DNA of 64,000 nucleotides from positions 2,015 through 66,014 of the forward strand of contig JACOYB010000006.1 of NCBI GenBank assembly GCA_016182085.1. The letters are read 5' to 3'. Shown piece by piece: positions 35,011 to 62,242 of the stretch. Below the pieces are notes generated by a model. The model worked only from the letters and a program-made list of their open reading frames with translations, was not told where the DNA came from and did no database searches. Made by a program: the position numbers and the translations under genes. Numbering within the stretch: the stretch's first letter is position 1; the number at the start of each line of letters is the position of its first letter. Origin of the DNA: Candidatus Magasanikiibacteriota bacterium. GTDB taxonomy: Bacteria > Patescibacteriota > Patescibacteriia > Magasanikbacterales > GWA2-37-8.

Positions 35011-35217
35011 TGTCATCCCGCCTGCCCGCCCTGTCGTTGGCGGGAGTGAGGCCTTAGCCGACGAGGGATCTAGGGTTGTCATTCCCGCCACAGCGGGAAT
35101 CCAGTATCCAATCAAATCGACTGGATCCCCGCTGTGGCGAGGATGACAACTGTGCAGACAGAGATTCCCTACCTACCGCAGGTAGGCTCACCCCTGCGAA
35201 GGGATTCGGAATGACAG
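35011..35217. repeat. Composite four-module palindromic repeat R4 (intergenic dprA-pth)
   Basis: Four modules: gtcatcccgc..gagggatctag, gtcattcccgccacagcgggaatccag, ctggatccccgctgtggcgaggatgacaa, cagacagagattccc..gggattcggaatgacag. Same architecture as R6. Confidence 0.8.
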
Positions 35218-48054: not shown

Positions 48055-50619
48055 TTAGTTGTCGTTTTTTTTCATGACCAAACTCCAGATTTTGTCGGAA
48101 CCAAGCTCTGTTAGTTTTATTGACATGCCATTAGCTGCAGCCGAAAGTCCGAGGCCGTCGTGCCAAATTGGCAGCCAGCCATCCGGGAAAATTACCTGGC
48201 TTTCAAAGTTGCTGTTAATGCCGGATTGTTTTTGCGCCACAAGTTGATAATTGGAAATTGGTTCCTGAGATTGAAAAATTTTTGCCCAATTATTTAAGTT
48301 TGAATCACCTTGTTTTTCCCAGGCTTTAAATGGTAATTTGTAGATAAATTGAACTTCTGTCGTTTGGCCTGGTTCGGTAATGATCCAGTTGCCAAAAGCT
48401 GTTTTGCCAAATTCTTTGGTAATGCGGGTACCTGATAAACTATCGGTTGATTCTTCTTTTTCCAGGGCAGCTAAGGTTTGGTCTTTTTCATACCAGCTTT
48501 CCGGAGCTCTAAATATTCTTTCTTCTGGCCAGGTAAAGCCGCTGGCGCGCACGAGCTCACTGCCTTCGGGTACATAGATTCGCAGGTAATCAATATTGGT
48601 TTGTCCATATAATTTTTCTTGACTGTTTCCGGTATGCTCTCGGGTTATAACGACGCTGTTTACAATCGTGCCGTCTGGCTGGATAACCGCCTGGTGGCTG
48701 ATGTTTTGTTTTATTTTTGCGTCACTTTTCTGTCCTTGAATATTGGTATTTACTACAAGCAGGTAATCTTGATTTGGATTTGTTTGTATGATTTCGCCGC
48801 TCCAGCCAAATTCGCGAATCGTTTTTTGAGTATTTTCATCGGTAAAGTATGTTTGAATTTCTTTTTGCTGCAAGCCTTCTTCCAAGTTGGTAAGCATTGG
48901 CAAAACTGCTTTTGGTGTTATGTTTTTGAAATTTTCAATAAAAACCGGCGCCAAATCCGATAGAATTTGTTTAGGTTTATTATCCTTTTTTTCTGGGCCA
49001 TACTCTACGATATCTTGAATGGTGGCGAGTGCATTTGTTTTGTCTAAAACCAGTCCGCGATTCTCGTCGGCTACCGGACCCATTATGGAAAGTAGGCGAT
49101 TCAAAACACTGGCATTTATAGCGATTACCCCGTCAGCCGTAACTCCGCGGCTATGGCGGTAGAACCAAAGTGCTTTTTCGGCACTGGCCGGAAAGTCAGG
49201 GAACCAGTTGGCATCCTGGAACTCCCAGCGTTTATTGGATAATAGTAGCGGCGTAGGCGGGACAATATACTCGGTAAGCTGTCCTTGCAGGTCATAGGAT
49301 CCGCCGGCGGGAATGTCTATATGTATTATTTCACCATCCTTAATGTCTAACATGGCAAAACTGCCCATAAAACCGCCGGTAGGACGGAGCTCAGCCGGAT
49401 TTTGGAAAATAAGCAAGTATCTTCGCAGACCCTTGCCGCCAAAAATTTCCTGTACGGCGTTATTTAACTGAGCGATGGTTTCCAGATCTTTGACGTAGAC
49501 ATTAAATAAAACACGGAATTCTTTAAATGTGTCTTGGTATTCAAACGGCAACACATCTGAATCAACGTTATTTAATTCACGCACGGCTGTTTGATAATGG
49601 GGCAGGGAAAATTTTAGATGATCTCCCACAAGCGCCAGATTTTTGGTGATGGTGGAGTTGGATTGTTGAATTTCAGACAAACCTTTGAGCAAGTAGGTGT
49701 TGCCTAAGGAAATTTCTTGTCCGGCGACGATAAGCCGCTGGCGGCTTTGGACCTCGTTGTTCACGATAGGTACGGCTGAAATGATTTTTTGTAAAAAGCT
49801 ATATTTACTGTCCAAGATATTTACAGCCTGTTCAAAATTTTGCAGCGCGTCAGTGAGTGATAGCTGGGCATCGGTTAGGTTGCCGCTCATAAGCGCGGAA
49901 GTAGAATCGTGCAGCGCGGTAAAACCGGCGGTGCTGCTATCCGCGATTTTGTTGGTTGTGGATTTGAGGTCAAAGTAATAGGTGCGCGCGCCAGACGGTA
50001 CGAATATTAAAAAGAGTATGGCGAGTGTCGCGCCTACAAAATGCTTGGGAGCGGCTGTAGCGCGAATTTTATGTATGGCAGATTTAGCTTTTTGCGCGTG
50101 TGAAAATTTTAGATCAGAAAGTTTTTGGGATAATTTTTTAATTGTCATCCCGAACTTGTTTCGGGATCTAGATGCTGAAACAAGTTCAGCATGACGCTGT
50201 GTATTTTTTTGTTGAGTTGGTTCTTTTTGGGCTTCCATTATTTTTGGCAAGAAAGACGGCGCTGCCACCGGCTTAGCAGCCGATTGCGCAGCGGTATGCC
50301 GCTCATGAAAAAAATAAAAATCATTATTTTCTTCCGGAGCCACGGCTTGGATATGTTCCAGTAATTTATTCTTTTCTTTTTTAAGATTTACCAGGTGCGG
50401 GGATTCATGATTTTGATATTGAACATGGTGTACAAAAAATTTGAGCGGCGCGCGTTCCGTTTGACCAGTGTTTGTTTGCGATACCATGTTTGGGCTCACT
50501 TGTTTGTCCAGGTTGAAACTTAAAGCATCTGGGCAAGTGGATTTGTTGTGCCCTACTTTTTGGCAGAAACCGCAATGTCGGAGCTGGAGTTTTTTAGCCG
50601 GTTTTAGTTTTTTGGCCAT
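48055..50619 (-). CDS. Hypothetical large membrane-anchored protein with N-terminal zinc-knuckle (palindromic repeat inserted in-frame)
   Basis: CGFCQKVGHNKSTC, one TM helix, ~650-aa extracytoplasmic domain. Repeat R5 encodes HAELVSASRSRNKFGMT. Confidence 0.5.
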   Translation of the reverse strand: MAKKLKPAKKLQLRHCGFCQKVGHNKSTCPDALSFNLDKQVSPNMVSQTNTGQTERAPLKFFVHHVQYQNHESPHLVNLKKEKNKLLEHIQAVAPEENNDFYFFHERHTAAQSAAKPVAAPSFLPKIMEAQKEPTQQKNTQRHAELVSASRSRNKFGMTIKKLSQKLSDLKFSHAQKAKSAIHKIRATAAPKHFVGATLAILFLIFVPSGARTYYFDLKSTTNKIADSSTAGFTALHDSTSALMSGNLTDAQLSLTDALQNFEQAVNILDSKYSFLQKIISAVPIVNNEVQSRQRLIVAGQEISLGNTYLLKGLSEIQQSNSTITKNLALVGDHLKFSLPHYQTAVRELNNVDSDVLPFEYQDTFKEFRVLFNVYVKDLETIAQLNNAVQEIFGGKGLRRYLLIFQNPAELRPTGGFMGSFAMLDIKDGEIIHIDIPAGGSYDLQGQLTEYIVPPTPLLLSNKRWEFQDANWFPDFPASAEKALWFYRHSRGVTADGVIAINASVLNRLLSIMGPVADENRGLVLDKTNALATIQDIVEYGPEKKDNKPKQILSDLAPVFIENFKNITPKAVLPMLTNLEEGLQQKEIQTYFTDENTQKTIREFGWSGEIIQTNPNQDYLLVVNTNIQGQKSDAKIKQNISHQAVIQPDGTIVNSVVITREHTGNSQEKLYGQTNIDYLRIYVPEGSELVRASGFTWPEERIFRAPESWYEKDQTLAALEKEESTDSLSGTRITKEFGKTAFGNWIITEPGQTTEVQFIYKLPFKAWEKQGDSNLNNWAKIFQSQEPISNYQLVAQKQSGINSNFESQVIFPDGWLPIWHDGLGLSAAANGMSIKLTELGSDKIWSLVMKKNDN
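50144..50197. repeat. Palindromic repeat R5 (two hairpin units, 54 nt = 18 codons) inside CDS 48055..50619
   Basis: gtcatcccgaacttgtttcgggatctag + atgctgaaacaagttcagcatgac. Confidence 0.7.
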
Positions 50620-52956: not shown

Positions 52957-54235
52957 ACTCTTTGGCAGATTCTGTCCAGCTAAATTTTTTAGCTTGCTCT
53001 GGGCCTAATTTTTTAAAATCTTCTCTCAAGGATTCATTTTTTAGTATATCCGCCATTGCTTTTGCTAGTTCTGAAGGGCGGTTGGGGTTTACCAAATAGG
53101 CGGCATTTTCGGTGATTTCCGGCAAGGATGAGCGGTGGGAGGTAATAACCGGTACGCCACAGGCCATCGCTTCGGCTACAGGAAAACCAAAACCTTCATA
53201 AAAACTTGGGTAGACAAATAAGTCCGCTAATGAATACAAAATGTGTTTATCTATTTCTGCTACCGAACCGATAAATATTATTTTATCTCTGGCTGGTGAT
53301 TTTTGCGCGGCGCTAAAAATGGCTTCGTCATTCCAGCCTTTATGGCCGGCAATTATTAGGGAGTAGGTGGTAGGCAGTAGGGAGTAGCATTGTTCAAAAG
53401 CACTTATTAGGCCAATAATATTTTTGCGCGGTTCTATAGTGCCTAGGAAAAGAATAAACTTACCTGGAAGGTTGTATTTTTTTTGTACCATTTCTTTGTT
53501 TGTCATCTCGAGCGATCCCGACTGCTCGGGAGACGAGGGATCTTTATCCGTTGTCATTCCCGCCGCAAGCGGGAATCCAGTATCCGATTGTCTGGATTCC
53601 CGCTGTGGCGGGAATGACAAGTGACCGGACAGAGATTCCTCGCCGATGCGAACCGGGTTCGGAATGACAGTTGATTGATTGTTTGAGCAGGTAACCCCAG
53701 GATAAATCACTTTAATTTTTTCCGATGGAATTTTGTACAAGTCAATGATATCTCGTTTGGTATTTTCCGACGGCGTAATGATAATCTCAGCCTGCTGGCA
53801 TTGTTTTTTTGGGTTAACCGCCCAGTGCCATAAGCGTTGTTTGGGAGAAAAAAATTGCGGAAAAAATTCAAAAGACAGATCGTGGACAGTAAGTATCTGT
53901 TTTGGTTTTTTGGTTAGGGCGGTAAAGCCAAAATTTGGTGAAAAGAAATAGTCCAGTTTAATTTTTTTGTCTATTTTTGGCGCGTTTAGAAGTTTTGTAG
54001 ATGCGTTAAATAATTTGTTGGGCCAGCGCGTGGCAACATAGCCTATATTAGGCTGTTTCCACTCAGGAATATTTTTGGAAATATCCGTATATGAATTATA
54101 AAAAAGAAAATATTGATTTTGTTTATCAATTTCAAAAATAGCATTCAGAAGTTCGTGTGTATATTCGCCTATGCCAGCCCGAACGGGAGACATGAGAGAG
54201 CGGATATCTATGCCAATTTGCAACATACTACCCAA
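52940..54235 (-). CDS. GT4-family glycosyltransferase (composite palindromic repeat inserted in-frame)
   Basis: C-terminal EGFGFPVAEAMACGVPVI. Residues LSGHLSFPPQRESRQSDTGFPLAAGMTTDKDPSSPEQSGSLEMTNKE come from repeat R6. Confidence 0.75.
   Translation of the reverse strand: MGSMLQIGIDIRSLMSPVRAGIGEYTHELLNAIFEIDKQNQYFLFYNSYTDISKNIPEWKQPNIGYVATRWPNKLFNASTKLLNAPKIDKKIKLDYFFSPNFGFTALTKKPKQILTVHDLSFEFFPQFFSPKQRLWHWAVNPKKQCQQAEIIITPSENTKRDIIDLYKIPSEKIKVIYPGVTCSNNQSTVIPNPVRIGEESLSGHLSFPPQRESRQSDTGFPLAAGMTTDKDPSSPEQSGSLEMTNKEMVQKKYNLPGKFILFLGTIEPRKNIIGLISAFEQCYSLLPTTYSLIIAGHKGWNDEAIFSAAQKSPARDKIIFIGSVAEIDKHILYSLADLFVYPSFYEGFGFPVAEAMACGVPVITSHRSSLPEITENAAYLVNPNRPSELAKAMADILKNESLREDFKKLGPEQAKKFSWTESAKEFIELL
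53502..53670. repeat. Composite four-module palindromic repeat R6 inside GT4 CDS, frame preserved
   Basis: Modules parallel R4: gtcatctcgagcgatcccgactgctcgggagacgagggatct, gtcattcccgccgcaagcgggaatccag, ctggattcccgctgtggcgggaatgacaag, cagagattcc..ggaatgacag. Confidence 0.8.
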
Positions 54236-56789: not shown

Positions 56790-56959
56790 AGGGTATTTTA
56801 AGGTCTATTTTACCCCATTATTTTTCTTTGAGCAAGCGAGTTTTAGCGCTGTGTTATTAATATTTTTTTCACCTTTTATAACCCCGTCCGCTTTGGACGG
56901 GGTTATAAAAGGTGAAATTAAGACGTTGACAAAACGCCTAGTTTATGCTAATATATCGT

Positions 56960-57353
56960 TCGCATAGTGATGATCGTCCCGACTCAGTCGGGAAGGAAAG
57001 TCCGAACATTCCCTCTGTATAGTCACGCCAGAGGAAAAAGGTAGTGGGTAATTCCCATCGGCCGCAAGGCCTGAGGTGCGAGCAGAGACGTTTCTTTTTG
57101 AAAGAAAAGAAAGAGCAAACCTTAAATTTTTGTTCAATCAAAAATATTGCTCAGTTCTTAGCGGAGGTAGTAAGCTAAGAGGTGAAACGGCTAAATCCTT
57201 ACTTGAATGCAAGAACAGCCCTAAACCAAATTTGGTTTTTGGAAAAGTTCGTTCGCTTGAGGTTTCGAGTAATCGAGATCCTAGATAAATGATCGTCGAC
57301 CATTTAGCGCGCAAGCGTTAATACGGATACAAAATTCGGCTTATACTATGCAA
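56960..57353 (+). ncRNA. rnpB: RNase P RNA
   Basis: P1 gcatagt/actatgc. P4 strands ggaaggaaagtccgaac and aaaattcggcttatac. Followed by hairpin terminator 57357-57385. Confidence 0.75.
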
Positions 57354-57356
57354 AAC

Positions 57357-57385
57357 AAAAACTTCCCCGATCGGGGAAGTTTTTG
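57357..57385. terminator. Bidirectional hairpin terminator
   Basis: aaaacttccccgatcggggaagttttt. Confidence 0.75.
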
Positions 57386-57396
57386 TTTTGGTTGAT

Positions 57397-58998
57397 TTAT
57401 AATGGAAGTTGGCTTGAACCTTCCGTAGGTTGTTCGGTCGGGGCCGGTTGTTTTGGCTGAATAAATTTATCAAATCCTTGCGGCAATTCCACTCGTCTGA
57501 ATTGTTGTGGGCCTTGTTCCCAAGGCAGCTCGTCTTCTTTCCCGGTTAGATCCTCAATTTTGCTTTCAAACTCTTGTTTTATATTTTCTAAGTCATCCAA
57601 AGCATCGCTAACCATGTCGGTGTCTACGGGCTTGGTTTTTAAGAGGTTGAGAACTTCTACGCCCTTTTCGTTCGCTTGGGCAAGAATAGATTCTAGTTCG
57701 CTAGTATCTACTTTTTTTCTCTTTAAGTTTTTAATAGTGAGATTGGCTTGAGCCATGCCTCGCTTGAATTCGGAATTAAAGCGGCCTAAATTGCTCATTG
57801 TCATTATGACTCTTTGATATTGCCAAACATCATCCATTTGGCCAAAGAAATCATCTTCCAAAGCAGAAAATGCTTCTTCCGAGTTGCCAGCCTTCATTTT
57901 AGCTACAGCATCATCACGAACACTTTTTAGTTTGTTTACAGCTTCTTCAAAAGCTGTGTATTCGCTCTGAACATCTATGCCTTTTTTAGCCAGAGTGGCT
58001 ACAGTTAATTTTGCTCGTTTTAAAGCGGCGGATAGTTGAGCTAATTGACGATCAATTTGTTTTAAGGTTTGTGGCCAGCGAGCCAAAACCTCCAATTGTT
58101 GGCGGTCTTCGTCAAATGTCTCCATCATATCTCGCATTGATTCCATTTCTTCCTGCACATCTTCAAAAGATGTTGCGTTTTTGACCTTATCAACCACAGA
58201 ACGAAGTTTGGCTACATGTTCGGTAATATCAGTAGGCACGGTTATGCCTTTTTTAGACAGAACGGCTAGCTGTCTCTCAAACATTTTGAGCCCTGTTTCC
58301 ATGCCTTTCATGCCGCGTTTCATGCCTTCTATTTGTTGCGCCTTTTCAAAAATTTCTCTTCTGGCATCTTCTAGATAGCGCATTAAAACTTGCACCTCGC
58401 TTATATCAACGTCTTCCAAGCCTTCAGCGCTCGTGGCATTTTGGATTTTATCAAGCAGAGTCTTTAGGTCGCTTAATTTTTGTTTTACTTCTTCAGGAAC
58501 AGCCGTGCCTTTTTTTTCGGCGCTGGCGATCATTAGTTCAAATTGCTTGACTTGGCGGGCCATTTGTTTCATCCCTCTTTTTATTTGCTCCAATTGTCTG
58601 CCATCATTTTGTCCGCCCATCATGCCTTGATTCTGGCTAGGGTCATAATTTGGCGGCATTTGGCCTGGGTACTGTTTATATTGATCGCCAGATGGGGGCA
58701 TCATGCCTTGAGGCGGCATTGGGTATTGCCCTTGGTTTGGATCTTGGGGGTACATTGTTCCCTGGGGAGGCATTGGATATGTCTGATCGGAGCCGCTTGG
58801 TGGAGGGGGCGGCATAGGAGAGGTAGGAGCCGGGGCAATGGTTGTATTGTCTTCGGCGTATACTTGGGTTGATCGTACGGCCTTAAACAGTACCTTAAGG
58901 CTTTGTGGTAATTCTAAATAAAAAGCGTGTGCTGGTTTTGCCATTAATGTGAACGCAAAAATAGCAAAAATTGATATTATTTTTGCAAAATGTTTCAT
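57397..58998 (-). CDS. Hypothetical secreted Pro/Gln-rich coiled-coil protein
   Basis: Signal peptide MKHFAKIISIFAIFAFTLMAKPAHA, PPxG low complexity, then long heptad region. Confidence 0.5.
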   Translation of the reverse strand: MKHFAKIISIFAIFAFTLMAKPAHAFYLELPQSLKVLFKAVRSTQVYAEDNTTIAPAPTSPMPPPPPSGSDQTYPMPPQGTMYPQDPNQGQYPMPPQGMMPPSGDQYKQYPGQMPPNYDPSQNQGMMGGQNDGRQLEQIKRGMKQMARQVKQFELMIASAEKKGTAVPEEVKQKLSDLKTLLDKIQNATSAEGLEDVDISEVQVLMRYLEDARREIFEKAQQIEGMKRGMKGMETGLKMFERQLAVLSKKGITVPTDITEHVAKLRSVVDKVKNATSFEDVQEEMESMRDMMETFDEDRQQLEVLARWPQTLKQIDRQLAQLSAALKRAKLTVATLAKKGIDVQSEYTAFEEAVNKLKSVRDDAVAKMKAGNSEEAFSALEDDFFGQMDDVWQYQRVIMTMSNLGRFNSEFKRGMAQANLTIKNLKRKKVDTSELESILAQANEKGVEVLNLLKTKPVDTDMVSDALDDLENIKQEFESKIEDLTGKEDELPWEQGPQQFRRVELPQGFDKFIQPKQPAPTEQPTEGSSQLPL

Positions 58999-59279: not shown

Positions 59280-59696
59280 TTATTTTGTGTCTATGCTGTT
59301 ATAAATCTGGTGCAATTCCGATTTTGCTTGCGCATCATTGTCTGGGTAAAACAGCCAAACATTGTAAGTTTCATTTTTTGATTTAATAGTAAATTGTTCT
59401 TTGGTCGTATTACCTTCATCTCTGGCGCCGAAATCAGCCGAACGAAAAATTTCTATACGGCGCTCGCTATCTTTGCTTACAGTTAAGACCTTAAAATATT
59501 TGGAGTAGTCTTGCACGGAGTAATATGTTGGATAGTTAAAGCTAAGACCTGGAAAATAGTCAGAAGAAAAATTGTTTAGTTGATTTTTGGGAACGGGGTT
59601 GGAAACCGGAATTTTTCCGTAAAAAAAACTAAAATAAACACCGCCAATTATCAGTATGGCCAAAATTACGGGAAGTAGTATTTTTTTTGAAGGCAT
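59280..59696 (-). CDS. Hypothetical membrane-anchored protein
   Basis: N-terminal TM helix ILLPVILAILIIGGVYFSFF. Confidence 0.45.
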   Translation of the reverse strand: MPSKKILLPVILAILIIGGVYFSFFYGKIPVSNPVPKNQLNNFSSDYFPGLSFNYPTYYSVQDYSKYFKVLTVSKDSERRIEIFRSADFGARDEGNTTKEQFTIKSKNETYNVWLFYPDNDAQAKSELHQIYNSIDTK

Positions 59697-59849
59697 ATTT
59701 TTTAAATTTATTTATTGTTTATATTGTAGATCATTGTGTATTTTTAGGCAAACACCTTTTCTCCCCATTTCTTTAGTAAAAACATTTTTTCACCTTTCAT
59801 AATTAAAAATCATTTTTCTACCTTTTGTACAAACAAAAGGTAGAGCCCA

Positions 59850-60360
59850 AAATTGCCGAGCGGATACTCACCTGACGGTACTTCCATCGGTTCAATGTCG
59901 TTTTGGCGGTCAATCGGCATAGTCGCATGACCGCCAATCCCCCACCACTTTCATTTGAAAGTGGTGGGGGATCCCTCCATTTCACCGTGGCAAGTACGCG
60001 CAGGTTTGTATATGCTCGGATATCGAACCGTTGTCCCAACGGTGTCCGGTCGATACCCGAGCCTATGGACTTTGGCCGAACTGGCCACAGTGATGGCAAA
60101 CGGTTCCTCCAGCTTGACGGGAGGAATTTGTCCTGCTGTTTGAGAACACCTGTTATAGACAGGTGTTTGAGTTCAGGACAAAAGCGAGACAGAGCTGATG
60201 GCAGTTCGAGACAACAGTACATCCGCGAGGCAGTTTTGGGGTATCACCCCGTTTTGCTGACAAAATGGGGTGATAAATCGTTGATAGAGATGTTTTTACT
60301 AAAGAAAGCGGCAAGGAGGGAGATCTTGGTGGTTAAAGAAGATGGGAAAAAGATAAAATA
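59850..60360. ncRNA. Candidate large structured non-coding RNA / highly structured non-coding island (identity unknown)
   Basis: At least 8 perfect 7-12 bp hairpins and long-range pairings; GC above flanks. No plausible ORF: both long ORFs here read as R/S/G-rich low-complexity. Confidence 0.45.
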
Positions 60361-60400
60361 AAAAACCTCCTGTTGAGCAGGAAGTTTTTATTTAAGTAGT

Positions 60401-62242
60401 TTATACTTCTATAACTACGGGTAATATCATCGGTCTCTTTTCAGTTTTACTGAACAAGAATTGTCCCACGTAATCGCGCAATTTATTTTTTATACCATTG
60501 GTATCTGCCCAGGAAAGCGGATCGGAATCGGTTACCATCTTTTTTACGCGATGGCGTAAATCTTCTATTAGTTCCTTGTGTTCTTTGAGGAATACAAAGC
60601 CGCGGGAGATAATATCCGGGTTTTGGATCAGTTTGCCGGTTTTGCTGTCTACGGTGGCAATGATTACCACCATCCCGTCTTCAGCGAGTACTTGTCTATC
60701 GCGCAAGACGATATTGGTTTCATCGCTGACACCAAGACCATCCACAAATACATGATCCGAAGGCAGTTTTTCTTTGGTTAAGACGCCCATGCCGTTTTTA
60801 AATTCCATGACTTGTCCGTTGTCAGCAATAAAGATATTTTCTTTTGGTATGCCCATGGAAGCCGCTACTTTACCGTTTAAGCGCAACATGAAATGATTGC
60901 CGTGCTGTGGAATAAAGTATTTTGGTTTAAGCAGCGTGAGCATTAGTTTTACTTCATCAGCTTTGGCATGTCCGCCGGCGTGCACGTCCATCATTTCGTG
61001 ATGAATAACTTCCGCGCCTTTTCTAAATAAGGTGTCCTTCAAGCGCTGCACCGTGCGTTCGTTGCCCGGGACAACTGAAGAGGAAAATACGACCGTATCG
61101 CCCGGAACTAATTTGATGTCCCTATGTTCACCGGTAGCGATACGCATAAGAGTCGCGTTTTTTTCTCCTTGGGCGCCGGTACAAATAATCACCACTTTAT
61201 TTGGCGGGTATTTGTCCACCTGTTGCATATCAATCAGAATTTTGGGGTTAAATTTCATGTAGCCAAGTTCTTTGGCAATTTCTACATTGCTTTTCATGCT
61301 AAAACCGCCAAGCGCCACAACTTTGCCGTGTTTTTCGGACATTTCAATAAGCATTTTGATACGAGAAAGCAAAGAAGAAAAGGCGCCGATAATGATGCGG
61401 CCCGGCGCTTTTTGGATAAGATTTTCCAAATTAACACCAATTTCTGTTTCCGAAGTTTGGTGTCCAGGCATCATGGCATTGGTAGAATCGCTCATAAGCG
61501 CGAGCACGCCCTGGTCGCCAATTTTGGCGATGCGCTGTAAATCAGCCGGAGGTTCGCCAACCGGCTGGTAATCAAATTTCCAATCGCCGGTATGGATAAC
61601 CGTGCCTTCAGGAGTGCGAATCACTATTCCCATTGAATCAGGGATGTTGTGATTTACATGGAAAAATTCCACTTCAAATGAGCCAAGCTGCAGTTTGTCC
61701 GTAAGTTTTACGTTGTTGATGGAAAATTGACCGACATCTCTAAAGTCTTCTTGGCGTTTTTTGATAATACTGTTGGTCATCGGTAGGGCGTAAATAGGCG
61801 GATAGCCAATCTTTGGAATAAGGTGGGGAATGCCGCCGATATGGTCGTAATGACCATGAGTGATGATAACGCCGCGGATATGTTTTTCTTTACCTTTGAG
61901 GTAACCCATGTTGGGAATAATATAATCAATGCCGGGCATATCTTCTTCCGGAAATTGCAGACCCATATCCACAAGGATTATGTCCTCGCCATATTCAAAC
62001 ATGGTACAGTTGCGGCCAACTTCTTCCAGACCTCCGATTACCGCCACACGCAATTTTGTGTCTTGGGTTCTAAATCTGGCAAAAGACGGGGCTTCGGCCG
62101 GTTTTTTTATTATAGGTGTCCGGCCCGTTTGAAACGACCGTTTTTGTCTATTTTGCCCAGCCGCATGCGTGCCACCGAGACGGTTTACGCCAGCGTGCTG
62201 AGGCCGCATCTGATTTTGCGGACTTGATGAATATCTCATCAT
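60401..62242 (-). CDS. rnj: Ribonuclease J (metallo-beta-lactamase / beta-CASP RNase)
   Basis: VIITHGHYDHIGG MBL motif. beta-CASP and C-terminal domain pattern. N-terminal ~60-aa basic extension. Confidence 0.88.
   Translation of the reverse strand: MMRYSSSPQNQMRPQHAGVNRLGGTHAAGQNRQKRSFQTGRTPIIKKPAEAPSFARFRTQDTKLRVAVIGGLEEVGRNCTMFEYGEDIILVDMGLQFPEEDMPGIDYIIPNMGYLKGKEKHIRGVIITHGHYDHIGGIPHLIPKIGYPPIYALPMTNSIIKKRQEDFRDVGQFSINNVKLTDKLQLGSFEVEFFHVNHNIPDSMGIVIRTPEGTVIHTGDWKFDYQPVGEPPADLQRIAKIGDQGVLALMSDSTNAMMPGHQTSETEIGVNLENLIQKAPGRIIIGAFSSLLSRIKMLIEMSEKHGKVVALGGFSMKSNVEIAKELGYMKFNPKILIDMQQVDKYPPNKVVIICTGAQGEKNATLMRIATGEHRDIKLVPGDTVVFSSSVVPGNERTVQRLKDTLFRKGAEVIHHEMMDVHAGGHAKADEVKLMLTLLKPKYFIPQHGNHFMLRLNGKVAASMGIPKENIFIADNGQVMEFKNGMGVLTKEKLPSDHVFVDGLGVSDETNIVLRDRQVLAEDGMVVIIATVDSKTGKLIQNPDIISRGFVFLKEHKELIEDLRHRVKKMVTDSDPLSWADTNGIKNKLRDYVGQFLFSKTEKRPMILPVVIEV

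Follow-up and report, generated by a model that had tools for sequence, protein, structure and literature searches.

Positions 59807-60277 of the window, the 64,000-nt stretch of a Candidatus Magasanikiibacteriota genome that was analysed, hold an element that the evidence below supports as non-coding, densely structured, conserved with compensatory changes and outside Rfam. The element is not a single RNA of ~500 nt. It consists of two inverted units of ~150-200 bp around a central hairpin. The units belong to a repeat family that is uncatalogued, being absent from Rfam 15 and from the phage, plasmid and literature collections searched. Members of this family share a covarying fold, are built into mosaics, are dispersed at unrelated intergenic sites in genomes of uncultured, probably CPR, bacteria and in a phage, and in one case form an insertion polymorphism between relatives. 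We favour, giving it about an even chance, the reading that the family is a non-autonomous, horizontally dispersed intergenic element that is active as a folded single strand, probably of DNA, and that behaves like a MITE or a REP/BIME sequence.

The limits of the element were set by homology with an unlinked copy at locus L231, and reach slightly further left and less far right than the 59850-60360 of the preliminary description. All the stems listed in that description were recovered in place by an inverted-repeat search, and the GC enrichment it noted was found as well, at 0.47-0.55 in the hairpin-rich gap versus ~0.30-0.40 in the flanks. Its statement that no believable ORF is present agrees with a Pfam search with both ORFs of more than 100 aa in the region (152 aa and 134 aa), which gave no match, and with the indels between homologous copies, which are not multiples of three (for example a Px hairpin of 19 nt versus 23 nt). 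That one of these ORFs is coding, or that the region is a decayed protein-coding gene, is practically negligible in our estimate. The two ORFs do span the region, but the frame-breaking indels of the homologues are confined to hairpin loops and stems, and the stem substitutions are compensatory, with no codon pattern. The absence of a recognisable RNA was also borne out. Rfam 15 (4227 families, including GOLLD, ROOL, HEARO, OLE, 6S, tmRNA, SRP and the known ribozymes) was searched with the entire window at the gathering thresholds and, at permissive E-values, with the region and 23 homologous loci; it gave no match at 59807-60277 on either strand at E<=10, and none to units from 23 other loci at E<=1. 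ARAGORN found no tmRNA or tRNA in the gap. RNase P, which had been placed at 56960, was located at 56959-57358 with 93.9 bits, slightly below the gathering score of 100.

For a 571-nt stretch the predicted folding energy of the + strand is -247 kcal/mol, where shuffles reach -167 +/- 7 (z -11.2), and that of the - strand is -227 kcal/mol (z -12.0). In the + strand MFE structure a long-range stem encloses the entire region. These very high z-scores on either strand, the enclosing stem and a terminator-like hairpin following on the + strand (60368-60382) would suit a long leader with extensive structure, or one ornate large RNA like GOLLD, ROOL or HEARO, that fills 59850-60360, as the preliminary description had proposed. 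We regard this as very improbable. The two halves are independent modules on opposite strands that are exchanged or inverted between genomes, lone units occur elsewhere (L039, L130, L201 and others), most relatives do not have the region at their rnj locus, and Rfam holds no match. In addition, the flanking genes lie on the strand opposite to +, and rnj terminates ahead of the element. The hairpin at the end of the region is present and is a bidirectional terminator, but belongs to rnj and not to the element. The option of a long 5' leader fails because unit orientation is independent of the flanking genes, and cis-regulatory leaders were rejected for the family on the same observation. What stands of the large structured RNA is thus a non-coding, structured sequence with compensatory changes, and the suggestion of a degraded foreign element applies in part, and to the left unit alone. 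The features are collected in Table 1.

Table 1. Features of the element and the terminator next to it (positions are those of the window).
Feature	Positions	Strand	Remarks
Whole mosaic element	59807..60277		84% identical to L231 8234-8690; no other L231 match to the window
Left terminal palindromic hairpin, TCTACCTTTTG-TACAAA-CAAAAGGTAGA	59817..59844		perfect 12-bp arms
Left unit, degenerate, core-less variant	59864..60004	-	family model 14.8 bits, E 0.056 (weak); stems 59903-59912/59928-59937 and 59937-59953/59956-59972 (17 bp, perfect)
Central hairpin, GCUCGG..(ACCGTTG/CAACGGT)..CCGAGC	60014..60062		inverted repeats between both units; stem 60027-60033/60037-60043 nested in 60010-60026/60050-60066
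Right unit, intact family member	60071..60222	+	model R1, 78.1 bits, E 1e-19
Px hairpin, TTCCTCC-agcttgacg-GGAGGAA	60104..60126	+	5' of P1; stem 60104-60110/60120-60126
P1 5' strand, TTTGTCCTG	60127..60135	+	pairs with 60174-60182
Core 5' strand, CTGTTTGAG	60136..60144	+	invariant in 45/45 aligned units, but fixed by the fetch pattern
P2 apical hairpin, AACACCTGT-tatag-ACAGGTGTT	60145..60167	+	stem 60145-60153/60159-60167
Core 3' strand, (T)GAGTT	60168..60173	+	invariant in the alignment, but GAGTT fixed by the fetch pattern
P1 3' strand, CAGGACAAA	60174..60182	+	covarying partner of the P1 5' strand
Junction AGCGAGA (family consensus AGYGA)	60183..60189	+	AGYGA specified in the fetch pattern, not independent conservation
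Right terminal palindromic hairpin, TATCACCCCGTTTTG-ctga-CAAAATGGGGTGATA	60242..60275		3' of the right unit; 15-nt arms, 93% complementary; stem 60242-60256/60261-60275
Bidirectional intrinsic rnj terminator	60361..60389		outside the element, beyond the block shared with L231; from a terminator scan of both strands

The halves of the element are independently folding units on opposite strands, accompanied by three accessory hairpins. The right unit is the sole strong match to model R1 in the 64 kb and runs through an outer stem, a junction, the Px hairpin, P1-core-P2 and the AGCGAGA junction. Px is hypervariable, differing in length and sequence among otherwise near-identical units with its pairing retained. 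The YGAG of the core 3' strand faces the UGAG of the 5' strand, with which it can form U.G, G.A, A.G and G-C or G.U pairs, and the AGCGAGA junction faces a GGAGCGG-type 5' junction sequence with which tandem G.A pairs can form. In the left unit, the outer stem GUACUUgCCAcGG/CCgAUGGAAGUAC is homologous to that of core-bearing units, based on comparison with L016 and L246, and the apex carries two plain hairpins (59903-59937 and 59937-59972) instead of the core. This unit is 75% identical to the left half of L231. The central hairpin recurs in position, together with its GCTCGG/CCGAGC arms and GGACA-type repeats, in L016, L017, L240, L242 and L246. The left terminal hairpin lies 3' of the left unit as read on the - strand; its type is present once in the window, with 0.01 expected in shuffles, and occurs elsewhere almost only 15-40 nt 3' of units, with one additional copy in L066. 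The right terminal hairpin is conserved in L231, L242, L240 and L004, and is duplicated in L004 and L242. It should be mentioned that these CCACCTTTTG..CAAAAGGTGG-type hairpins were considered as terminators and rejected, since the T/A tracts lie within the stem and no U-run follows it. The genuine terminators of the window's genome have the opposite layout.

The core of the family is, in order, a 9-bp stem P1, CUGUUUGAG, the variable hairpin P2, GAGUU, the returning strand P1' and AGYGA. It was found in 46 metagenome contigs, four related Magasanikbacteria MAGs and one tailed-phage contig, from which more than 60 units were gathered in all; the hosts of core-bearing units range from 30 to 71% GC. 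Nearly all of the 46 metagenome loci, which came from a pattern scan, have a 9-bp complementary P1, in many different sequences. The test by P1 is discriminating, since in a relaxed viral pattern scan only 1 of the more than 120 matches listed had a P1; nearly all of the matches listed there were chance or coding. The 134-nt family alignment of 45 units was seeded by a pattern that fixes the core, which accounts in part for the core's invariance. P1 is 9 bp long in nearly all of the aligned units, and 97.5% of its cells are paired. Covariation in relatives, which the preliminary description had proposed as a check, is pronounced in this stem: 168 changes are double and 2 are single, all four Watson-Crick types occur at 7 positions, and the covariation score is 0.88 versus 0.17 in shuffles, with slid controls paired in <=45%. 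The P1 sequence is free except for UG/CA at the top. P2 varies from 10 to 28 nt across the family and its stems covary as well. The base ahead of GAGTT is C in 31 units and U in 14, and two variants of the core, CUGAUUGAG in L010 and UGUUUGAG in the left unit of L242, were found via the model or by eye. Three-way-junction and multi-stem subtypes have long conserved single-stranded purine tracts and a closing stem GCCGGAAGAAC..GUUCCGGC (~215 nt), and the copies at L238 and L239 have near-perfect palindromic arms of 60-100 bp. No DNA similar to the family was found in the cultured-phage and plasmid collections, and no description of it in the literature, searched by sequence and by topic.

The family is dispersed at unrelated intergenic sites. 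The 471-bp copy at L231, 84% identical, lies in a related genome, at an unrelated locus; the rnj locus of that genome has a copy as well. The possibility named in the preliminary description as speaking against a new RNA, that the hairpins are mobile palindromes found elsewhere in the genome, is essentially what was observed here, with the copy in a related genome. A single 389-kb contig bears two of the loci, L231 and L242, whose right units share 98% identity. The right unit of the window is 91-97% identical to those of L231, L242 and L004, and the adjacent rnj gene is 75-78% identical; conservation of the unit above that of an adjacent essential gene fits a recent lateral spread. Among the 80 related rnj loci, the element was detected in 4 by blastn/nhmmer and the family model (L004, L016, L017 and, at a different site, L039). 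Such a distribution led us to reject vertical conservation with rnj, the remaining 76 having no element at the rnj locus; in L021 a tRNA stands there in its place. At L039 a ~190-bp insertion lies exactly at the infB stop codon, and the same site is empty in L038, where the flanking proteins are 92-94% identical, and in L054. This is the only filled/empty comparison found. Neither a clear target-site duplication nor a clear target motif is present at the L039 junctions, and no target-site duplication was seen at seven type-G copies. With one such pair and no clear target duplication or motif, precise deletion may account for the L039 difference in place of insertion. Copy number is low: the 64 kb of the window contain one element, and 1.35 Mb of related DNA contain 5-6 units.

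The two halves recombine freely between genomes. In all adjacent unit pairs (11/11) the - unit is on the left and the + unit on the right, with a spacer of 40-90 nt where measured and one exception of 234 nt at L215. The left half of the window's element is swapped for a different unit in L242, L240 and L017, and right halves stay 87-97% identical while left halves differ between genomes. The window-like unit in L017 is inverted relative to rnj, L240 has three units, and single units occur alone at the loci named above.

Units are always intergenic, and the housekeeping genes near them include rnj, infB and hemN. Their orientation relative to co-directional neighbours is unbiased (AA 15, SS 9). 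An all-against-all comparison of 592 neighbouring ORFs gave no recurring neighbour protein family other than housekeeping clusters and a TrmB-like HTH in 3 loci. No transposase, recombinase or Rep gene was found beside any copy within 4 kb of 50 loci, and no transposase family recurs; a mobilising enzyme is hypothetical for this reason. No conservation was found outside the closing stems, so the family has no promoter or terminator of its own, and no + strand promoter was found upstream in the window. The tailed-phage contig L130 has three units, located among the head genes. All three lie on the same DNA strand even though, relative to the local operon, one of them is antisense.

The pairing within units has DNA-like as well as RNA-like signs. 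G.U accounts for 2 of the 315 variable cells of P1, and P2 stems are essentially free of it. None of the 41 P2 variants has a GNRA or UNCG loop; several P2 loops are C-GAA-G or C-GCA-G triloops, including GCGAAGC. GNA triloops are common in the units, and tandem G.A pairs are abundant. Interior G.U makes up 4.4% of the predicted helices, compared with 11.6% in known RNAs of the window's genome, and is less frequent on the antisense strand (1.7%). Under DNA parameters the unit fold is significant on both strands, the sense strand being the better one (z -8.1, antisense -6.4). At specific positions beside G.A pairs, C-G and U.G alternate freely (31 versus 14 units), which is RNA-like behaviour.

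In the explanation that we prefer, the basic unit is ~120-200 nt long, and its single strand folds into a rod or a three-way junction. Its helices are Watson-Crick stems broken by predicted tandem sheared G.A pairs (YGAG opposite YGAG). They are capped by a P1 of exactly 9 bp, on which sit an asymmetric internal loop that is conserved (CUGUUUGAG/GAGUU) and a P2 that varies freely. Some units stand alone and others form inverted, head-to-head doublets on opposite strands; in Magasanikbacteria-type copies a CCACCTTTTG..CAAAAGGTGG-type palindrome comes after each unit, and the window has a doublet of an intact + strand unit and a decayed - strand unit. The element would spread by inserting between genes and would leave the target unduplicated. 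The conserved apical loop on P1 may be the recognition site, and possibly the cleavage site, of a factor encoded elsewhere that reads the folded strand. We infer both the existence and the type of this trans-acting enzyme, and likewise that ssDNA is the active form; ssDNA is favoured over RNA, as in the substrates of HUH/Y1 transposases, integron integrases or ssDNA priming enzymes. Against this explanation, the low copy number is unlike typical REP or MITE bursts, and MITEs less typically than functional RNAs or ribozymes have a core that is invariant across hosts of such different GC content, or sense-specific purine-rich loops. The C-G/U.G alternation, the higher G.U content of the sense strand, the lack of a mobilising gene beside copies and the single filled/empty pair count against it as well.

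It is possible, if on balance doubtful, that the units form a new structured RNA class instead, either a small self-sufficient ribozyme or a protein-binding sRNA or decoy. The P1 internal loop and the G.A-rich junction would then be the active or binding site, and a doublet would be two divergent RNAs. The invariant, strand-specific core with freely covarying stems in very different hosts and a phage argues for such a class, as do the subtypes with purine tracts and a defined closing stem. Tandem G.A pairs of the CGAG/CGAG type count among the classic RNA motifs. The C-G/U.G alternation, the higher G.U content of the sense strand, the conservation of the right unit far above the neighbouring gene and the two phage copies that directly follow the major capsid and cement genes in sense orientation point the same way. 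However, unit ends have no conserved promoter or terminator, random orientation would leave about half of the single copies transcribed only as antisense, and the GC-rich central hairpin of doublets, in 40-90 nt, is too short for two divergent promoters. The near absence of G.U from P1 and P2, the lack of GNRA or UNCG loops and the lack of an Rfam match, with all known ribozyme classes included, also weigh against RNA, and the long palindromic arms of L238 and L239 would as RNA be RNase III substrates. We consider it quite improbable that the units serve as ssi/sso-type signals or origins for strand-specific initiation on single strands, in which SSB-resistant ssDNA folds recruit primase or RNA polymerase and opposite-strand doublets prime both directions, as ssiA/ssiB do in RSF1010 oriV. 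This would be consistent with the ssDNA-like pairing and its GNA triloops, with the strictly head-to-head doublets on opposite strands, and with the three phage copies sharing one DNA strand whatever the transcription. CTG, the DnaG initiation trinucleotide in E. coli, is invariant in the core, and AGYGA is similar to the ssoA CS-6 motif TAGCGT. The resemblance to CS-6 extends over only 4-5 nt, however, and the units lack the ssoA RSB consensus. The elements occupy intergenic sites in chromosomes, outside plasmid or phage replication modules, the phage copies lie among head genes, and the orientation counts have no excess of the kind expected for exposure of the lagging-strand template. Priming would also leave the insertion polymorphism unexplained.

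Genomes of CPR bacteria (Patescibacteria) are tiny and have very little non-coding DNA, and to our knowledge their non-coding elements, whether mobile or regulatory, are almost undescribed. The architecture of the family is unusual in its G.A-zipper helices, invariant apical loop and opposite-strand doublets, and is common to a tailed phage. If the active form is ssDNA, the family would indicate that uncultured bacteria have a system for mobilisation, recombination or priming that is yet to be described; if it is RNA, the family would be a new dispersed RNA class, possibly a ribozyme. It is unlikely, but conceivable, that a new widespread catalytic or recombinogenic folded nucleic acid is present in CPR bacteria and phages, either a self-cleaving or self-mobilising ribozyme or an attC-like ssDNA recombination site for a new enzyme family. 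In either version the CUGUUUGAG/GAGUU loop on its 9-bp stem would be the active site, with the tandem-G.A helices as scaffold. The 134-position model R1 and the search pattern (TGCTGTTTGAG N10-30 GAGTTCA) provide a handle for finding a partner enzyme by co-occurrence, and the family may serve as a marker tying phage contigs to CPR hosts.

We have compared the family with known dispersed and single-stranded systems. Like the dispersed ribozymes (hammerhead, twister, twister-sister, pistol and hatchet), it consists of small units in bacterial and phage intergenic DNA without a fixed neighbour, with conserved nucleotides only in junctions and internal loops and with stems that covary and vary in length. 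It differs from them in having no Rfam ribozyme match, almost no G.U and no GNRA loops, in its long palindromic outer arms and opposite-strand doublets, and in that cleavage is only putative. Hammerhead and K-turn readings of the core were tried, and it does not appear to fit either consensus. The ssoA of pMV158-type plasmids, ssiA/ssiB of RSF1010 and the G4 oric are likewise strand-specific ssDNA folds of 100-200 nt with few conserved loop nucleotides; the RSF1010 signals are paired on opposite strands like the doublets, and AGYGA resembles CS-6. These signals lie in plasmid or phage replication regions with defined RSB and CS-6 or primase sites, whereas the family is chromosomal, dispersed and polymorphic. 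An ssoA-type origin was rejected, as the RSB (about TTATGCCGAGAAAATTT) is absent, the similarity to CS-6 covers too few nucleotides and the sites are chromosomal. The hairpin ends and the lack of target-site duplication would be compatible with an IS200/IS605-derived PATE; no conserved tetranucleotide is present at the junctions and no TnpA near copies. Integron attC sites share with the family ssDNA-type hairpins in which structure is conserved and sequence variable, few wobble pairs, a conserved stem beside an unpaired central region, a variable terminal structure that differs widely in length, mini-hairpins of the GCGAAGC type and strand-specific function. Only attC sites have R''/R' boxes (RYYYAAC/GTTRRRY), extrahelical bases and co-oriented arrays flanking cassettes beside intI. 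The units were not accepted as attC sites, since the core CTGTTTGAG/GAGTT does not fit GTTRRRY and the P1 sequence is free, nor as attC arrays, since they are single or opposite-strand doublets among housekeeping genes.

The bacterial MITEs, such as Correia, ERIC and RUP (reviewed in PMC3184786), are also short, non-autonomous, dispersed and intergenic, with long hairpins, insertion polymorphism and either orientation. The family agrees with them in being non-coding, in its dispersal at unrelated loci and in presence/absence at L039 versus L038/L054. In MITEs the terminal inverted repeats, on which a dsDNA transposase acts, are conserved in sequence, and the target site is duplicated. In the family, by contrast, stem sequences vary with the pairing kept, conservation is in the asymmetric loops, the palindromic ends covary instead of conserving their sequence, no target-site duplication was seen and no parent IS is known. 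The REP/BIME/REPIN sequences of Proteobacteria are mobilised by RAYT Y1 transposases. According to PMC3733652, REPs are simple hairpins of 20-40 bp that bear a GTAG or CGTC tag and number tens to hundreds per genome. The units described here are longer (120-200 nt) and include a three-way junction, helices rich in G.A pairs and an apical internal loop that is invariant; they have a low copy number and a core common to very different hosts. No GTAG/CGTC tag was found on the terminal hairpins, and no RAYT was seen near copies. REP/BIME sequences and the family are both intergenic, non-coding and palindromic, often between convergent genes, and both form alternating-orientation mosaics with accessory motifs and inverted doublets that are present or absent between relatives. 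The mosaic build of BIMEs is matched by the 11 head-to-head doublets, by units exchanged between loci and by central and terminal hairpins as accessory motifs, and both kinds of element are thought to act as folded single strands.

The gap between the small ORF and rnj, the RNase J gene, matches the preliminary description. It is GC-enriched, as claimed there (0.47-0.55 against 0.28-0.40 in the surroundings), and every stem listed was found. For a 571-nt stretch of the gap, the folding energy is -247 kcal/mol (z -11.2) on the + strand; on the - strand it is -227 kcal/mol (z -12.0). None of 100 shuffles reaches these values. The gap was said to hold no believable ORF, and a Pfam search with both of its long ORFs indeed gave no match; the proposed Rfam scan returned no family, either at the gathering score or at E<=10. 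The hairpin described as terminator-like is a bidirectional terminator at the end of rnj. The finding is real, but it needs re-describing: the element belongs to a new family of non-autonomous elements that are dispersed and conserved in structure, of which it is one partly decayed copy. A single large ornate RNA, as suggested previously, is very unlikely, since the element is a doublet of units from this dispersed family.

The source organism is a relative of Candidatus Magasanikbacteria (CPR/Patescibacteria). Among 80 genome loci fetched via rnj, similar DNA downstream of the gene is present only in L016, L017 and L004, the last truncated where its contig stops. The match is patchy and partly on the opposite strand: L017 has a 192-nt block, 87% identical to window positions 60047-60237, that is inverted relative to rnj, and L016 has its outer arms swapped. 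The neighbourhood of rnj and the 138-aa ORF is kept in L021, with a tRNA-like gene, recognised by eye, occupying the gap instead of the element. The element region and rnj are thus not conserved together by vertical descent. Several relatives carry, downstream of rnj, homologues of a 533-aa protein encoded in the window. The N-terminus of this protein is signal-peptide-like; further features are a low-complexity tract rich in Pro, Gln and Met and a long repeat region of coiled-coil-like character, and no Pfam family matches significantly.

The limits of the element, 59807-60277, are set by its match (84% identity) to an unlinked copy at L231 8234-8690. L231, an unrelated locus, and L242, an rnj locus, belong to one 389-kb contig; their right units are 98% identical and their left units unrelated. 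Between the window and L231, L242 and L004 the right units share 91-97% identity, as compared with only 75-78% for the adjacent rnj. Three units are present in L240. A small unit in L039 lies between the infB stop codon and trx, genes that are ~30 nt apart and without a unit in L038 (flanking proteins 92-94% identical) and L054; these empty sites indicate that ~190 bp were inserted precisely at the stop codon, and no target duplication is clearly visible. Copies are few: related genomes have 5-6 units in 1.35 Mb. Nothing similar to the element was found in cultured-phage and plasmid collections, and literature searches found no description of the unit family. ORFs of ~245 aa with a TrmB-like winged-helix domain adjoin units in two loci and lie within 3 kb in a third; every other neighbour encountered repeatedly is a housekeeping gene.

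A covariance model, R1, gives one strong and one weak match in the window. The weak left unit keeps a homologous outer stem, its apex being replaced by two plain hairpins. In all 11 adjacent pairs (11 loci), the left unit is on the - strand and the right unit on the + strand; a GCUCGG..CCGAGC hairpin lies between them, and the spacing is 40-90 nt where measured, apart from 234 nt in L215. The R1 matches and this shared arrangement establish the window element as a doublet.

Features of the element, the window and related loci
Feature	Locus	Coordinates	Strand	Remarks
Small ORF	window	59280-59696	-	one border of gap
Terminal hairpin	window	59817-59844		left end of doublet
Decayed left unit	window	59864-60004	-	R1, 14.8 bits
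Central hairpin	window	60014-60062
Intact right unit	window	60071-60222	+	R1, 78 bits
Px	window	60104-60126		small hairpin 5' of P1
Core module	window	60127-60189
P2	window	60145-60167		apical hairpin
Terminal hairpin	window	60242-60275		right end of doublet
Bidirectional terminator of rnj	window	60361-60389
rnj	window	60401-62242	-	other border of gap
tRNA-like gene	L021	11945-12130		gap between rnj and 138-aa-ORF homologue
533-aa protein	window	57397-58998	-
Perfect hairpin	window	56867-56917		23-bp arms
Promoter-like pair of RNase P RNA	window	~56927-56955		TTGACA/TAATAT
RNase P RNA, bacterial class A	window	56959-57358	+	93.9 bits; Rfam gathering score 100
Perfect terminator	window	57351-57390
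23S rRNA gene	window	9485-12690
Group I intron	window	12119-12317		69.9 bits
Units in phage contig	L130	1104-1217, 7042-7163, 7872-7993	+
Second palindromic repeat family	window	35075-35150, 53551-53620, 50144-50195
Second palindromic repeat family	L130	8087-8103
Second palindromic repeat family	L020	4263-4279
TrmB-like ORFs	L239	5501-6238, 7338-8078
TrmB-like ORF	L244	1690-2241
TrmB-like ORF	L201	2336-3073

Common to the units are a 5' junction (GAGRYGA..GGAGCGGU), the small hypervariable hairpin Px and a 3' junction (AGYGAC..CGAGYC). By inspection, the junction strands may form a helix in which Watson-Crick pairs alternate with tandem G.A pairs, YGAG opposite YGAG, and a U.G/G.A/A.G/G-C block appears to recur in the core and outer stem; the G.A geometry is presumed from known CGAG/CGAG motifs. 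The subtypes, none of which matches Rfam, are small units of ~175 bp with long palindromic arms and sharply bounded conservation (L039, L201, L205, L207, L220), multi-stem type-G units of ~215 nt closed by GCCGGAAGAAC..GUUCCGGC (L204, L222, L225, L227, L234-L236), and the window type, which has a palindromic hairpin, NCCACCTTTTG-loop-CAAAAGGTGGN, 15-40 nt downstream of each unit. This hairpin is nearly confined to such positions: the window holds one perfect copy against 0.01 expected, the copies in other loci adjoin units, and L066 has one more. Another perfect hairpin, just upstream of the RNase P promoter, has outer arms (CACCTTTTAT..ATAAAAGGTG) resembling the terminal hairpins of the element and a GC-rich inner stem.

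Comparison of the copies yielded a shared module, P1 (9 bp) - CUGUUUGAG - hairpin P2 - GAGUU - P1' - AGYGA. The sequence of P1 differs among copies with complementarity kept, being UUUGUCCUG/CAGGACAAA in the window, GCUCUCGUG/CACGAGAGC in L017 and CUGGCCCUG/CAGGGCCAG in L039. A relaxed pattern gave chance matches in viral contigs and, among the matches listed, a paired P1 only in L130, so the P1 test is discriminating. A stricter pattern matched 46 metagenome contigs, nearly all with a 9-bp P1, in many different sequences, and with a P2 of 10-28 nt. Across an alignment of 45 distinct units, each of the seven variable pairs of P1 takes all four Watson-Crick types, pairing holds in 97.5% of P1 cells (<=45% in slid controls), and the covariation score is 0.88, compared with 0.17 ± 0.02 in shuffles. 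The core strands are invariant in these units, but the search pattern had fixed them beforehand; two core variants came to light later with the model, CUGAUUGAG in L010 and, in L242, UGUUUGAG in the left unit. Right units of the window, L231, L240 and L017 that are otherwise 87-98% identical have entirely different Px and P2 hairpins, whose stems evolve much more quickly than the remainder of the unit; in P2, for example, the window has AACACCTGT.. where L240 has ATTGGCCGT.., and all changes are compensated.

L130 is a tailed-phage contig encoding terminase, portal, protease, major head and cement proteins. Two of its units directly follow the major head and cement genes, and the third is located within the packaging operon, which is transcribed in the opposite direction. 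A second palindromic repeat family, unrelated to the units (GTCATTCCCGC..GCGGGAATGAC and GTCATCCCGAACTTGTTTCGGGAT), was also observed. The 17-mer CCCGAACTTGNTTCGGG, common to the window, L130 and a Patescibacteria MAG, hints that this phage may infect a CPR host.

The RNase P RNA placed at 56960 by eye is indeed there. It has insertions and a reduced P12-P15 region, which bring its score below the Rfam gathering threshold, and default Rfam annotation would therefore miss it. The group I intron interrupts the 23S rRNA gene. The 64-kb window has 23S and 5S genes and no 16S gene, hence the rRNA genes are unlinked.

We see an even chance that the family is a mobile element acting as a folded single strand, ssDNA being favoured, with its partner encoded elsewhere. 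The pairing statistics lean toward DNA. Of 315 variable cells in P1, 2 are G.U, the stems of P2 have practically no G.U, and no GNRA or UNCG loop occurs among 41 P2 variants; triloops of the C-GAA-G or C-GCA-G kind cap several P2 hairpins, among them GCGAAGC, an exceptionally stable DNA mini-hairpin. Interior G.U pairs make up 4.4% in predicted helices of the units, compared with 11.6% for the RNase P, rRNA and tRNAs of the same genome, although their excess on the sense strand over the antisense strand (1.7%) speaks for RNA. With DNA folding parameters the right unit is still significant (sense z -8.1, antisense z -6.4).

That the units form a new class of dispersed RNAs or ribozymes is possible, though less likely. 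The units are always intergenic, no protein family recurs near them, and between co-directional genes they are antisense in 15 cases and sense in 9, all of which argues against a dedicated RNA gene or a leader; on the other side stand invariant, sense-specific purine loops common to hosts of 30-71% GC, and C-G alternating with U.G beside G.A pairs (31 vs 14 units). Conservation ends at the closing stems, so that there is no family promoter or terminator. No + strand promoter lies upstream of the element in the window, and the short GC-rich centre of the doublet is too small for two divergent promoters. The complex, multi-stemmed type-G subtype and the low copy number would suit an RNA, but the three L130 copies share one DNA strand though one is antisense to its operon. 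The family is like REP/BIME and MITE elements in genomic behaviour and like attC sites and small ribozymes in its conservation pattern, yet it fails defining tests of the first three and matches no Rfam ribozyme model.
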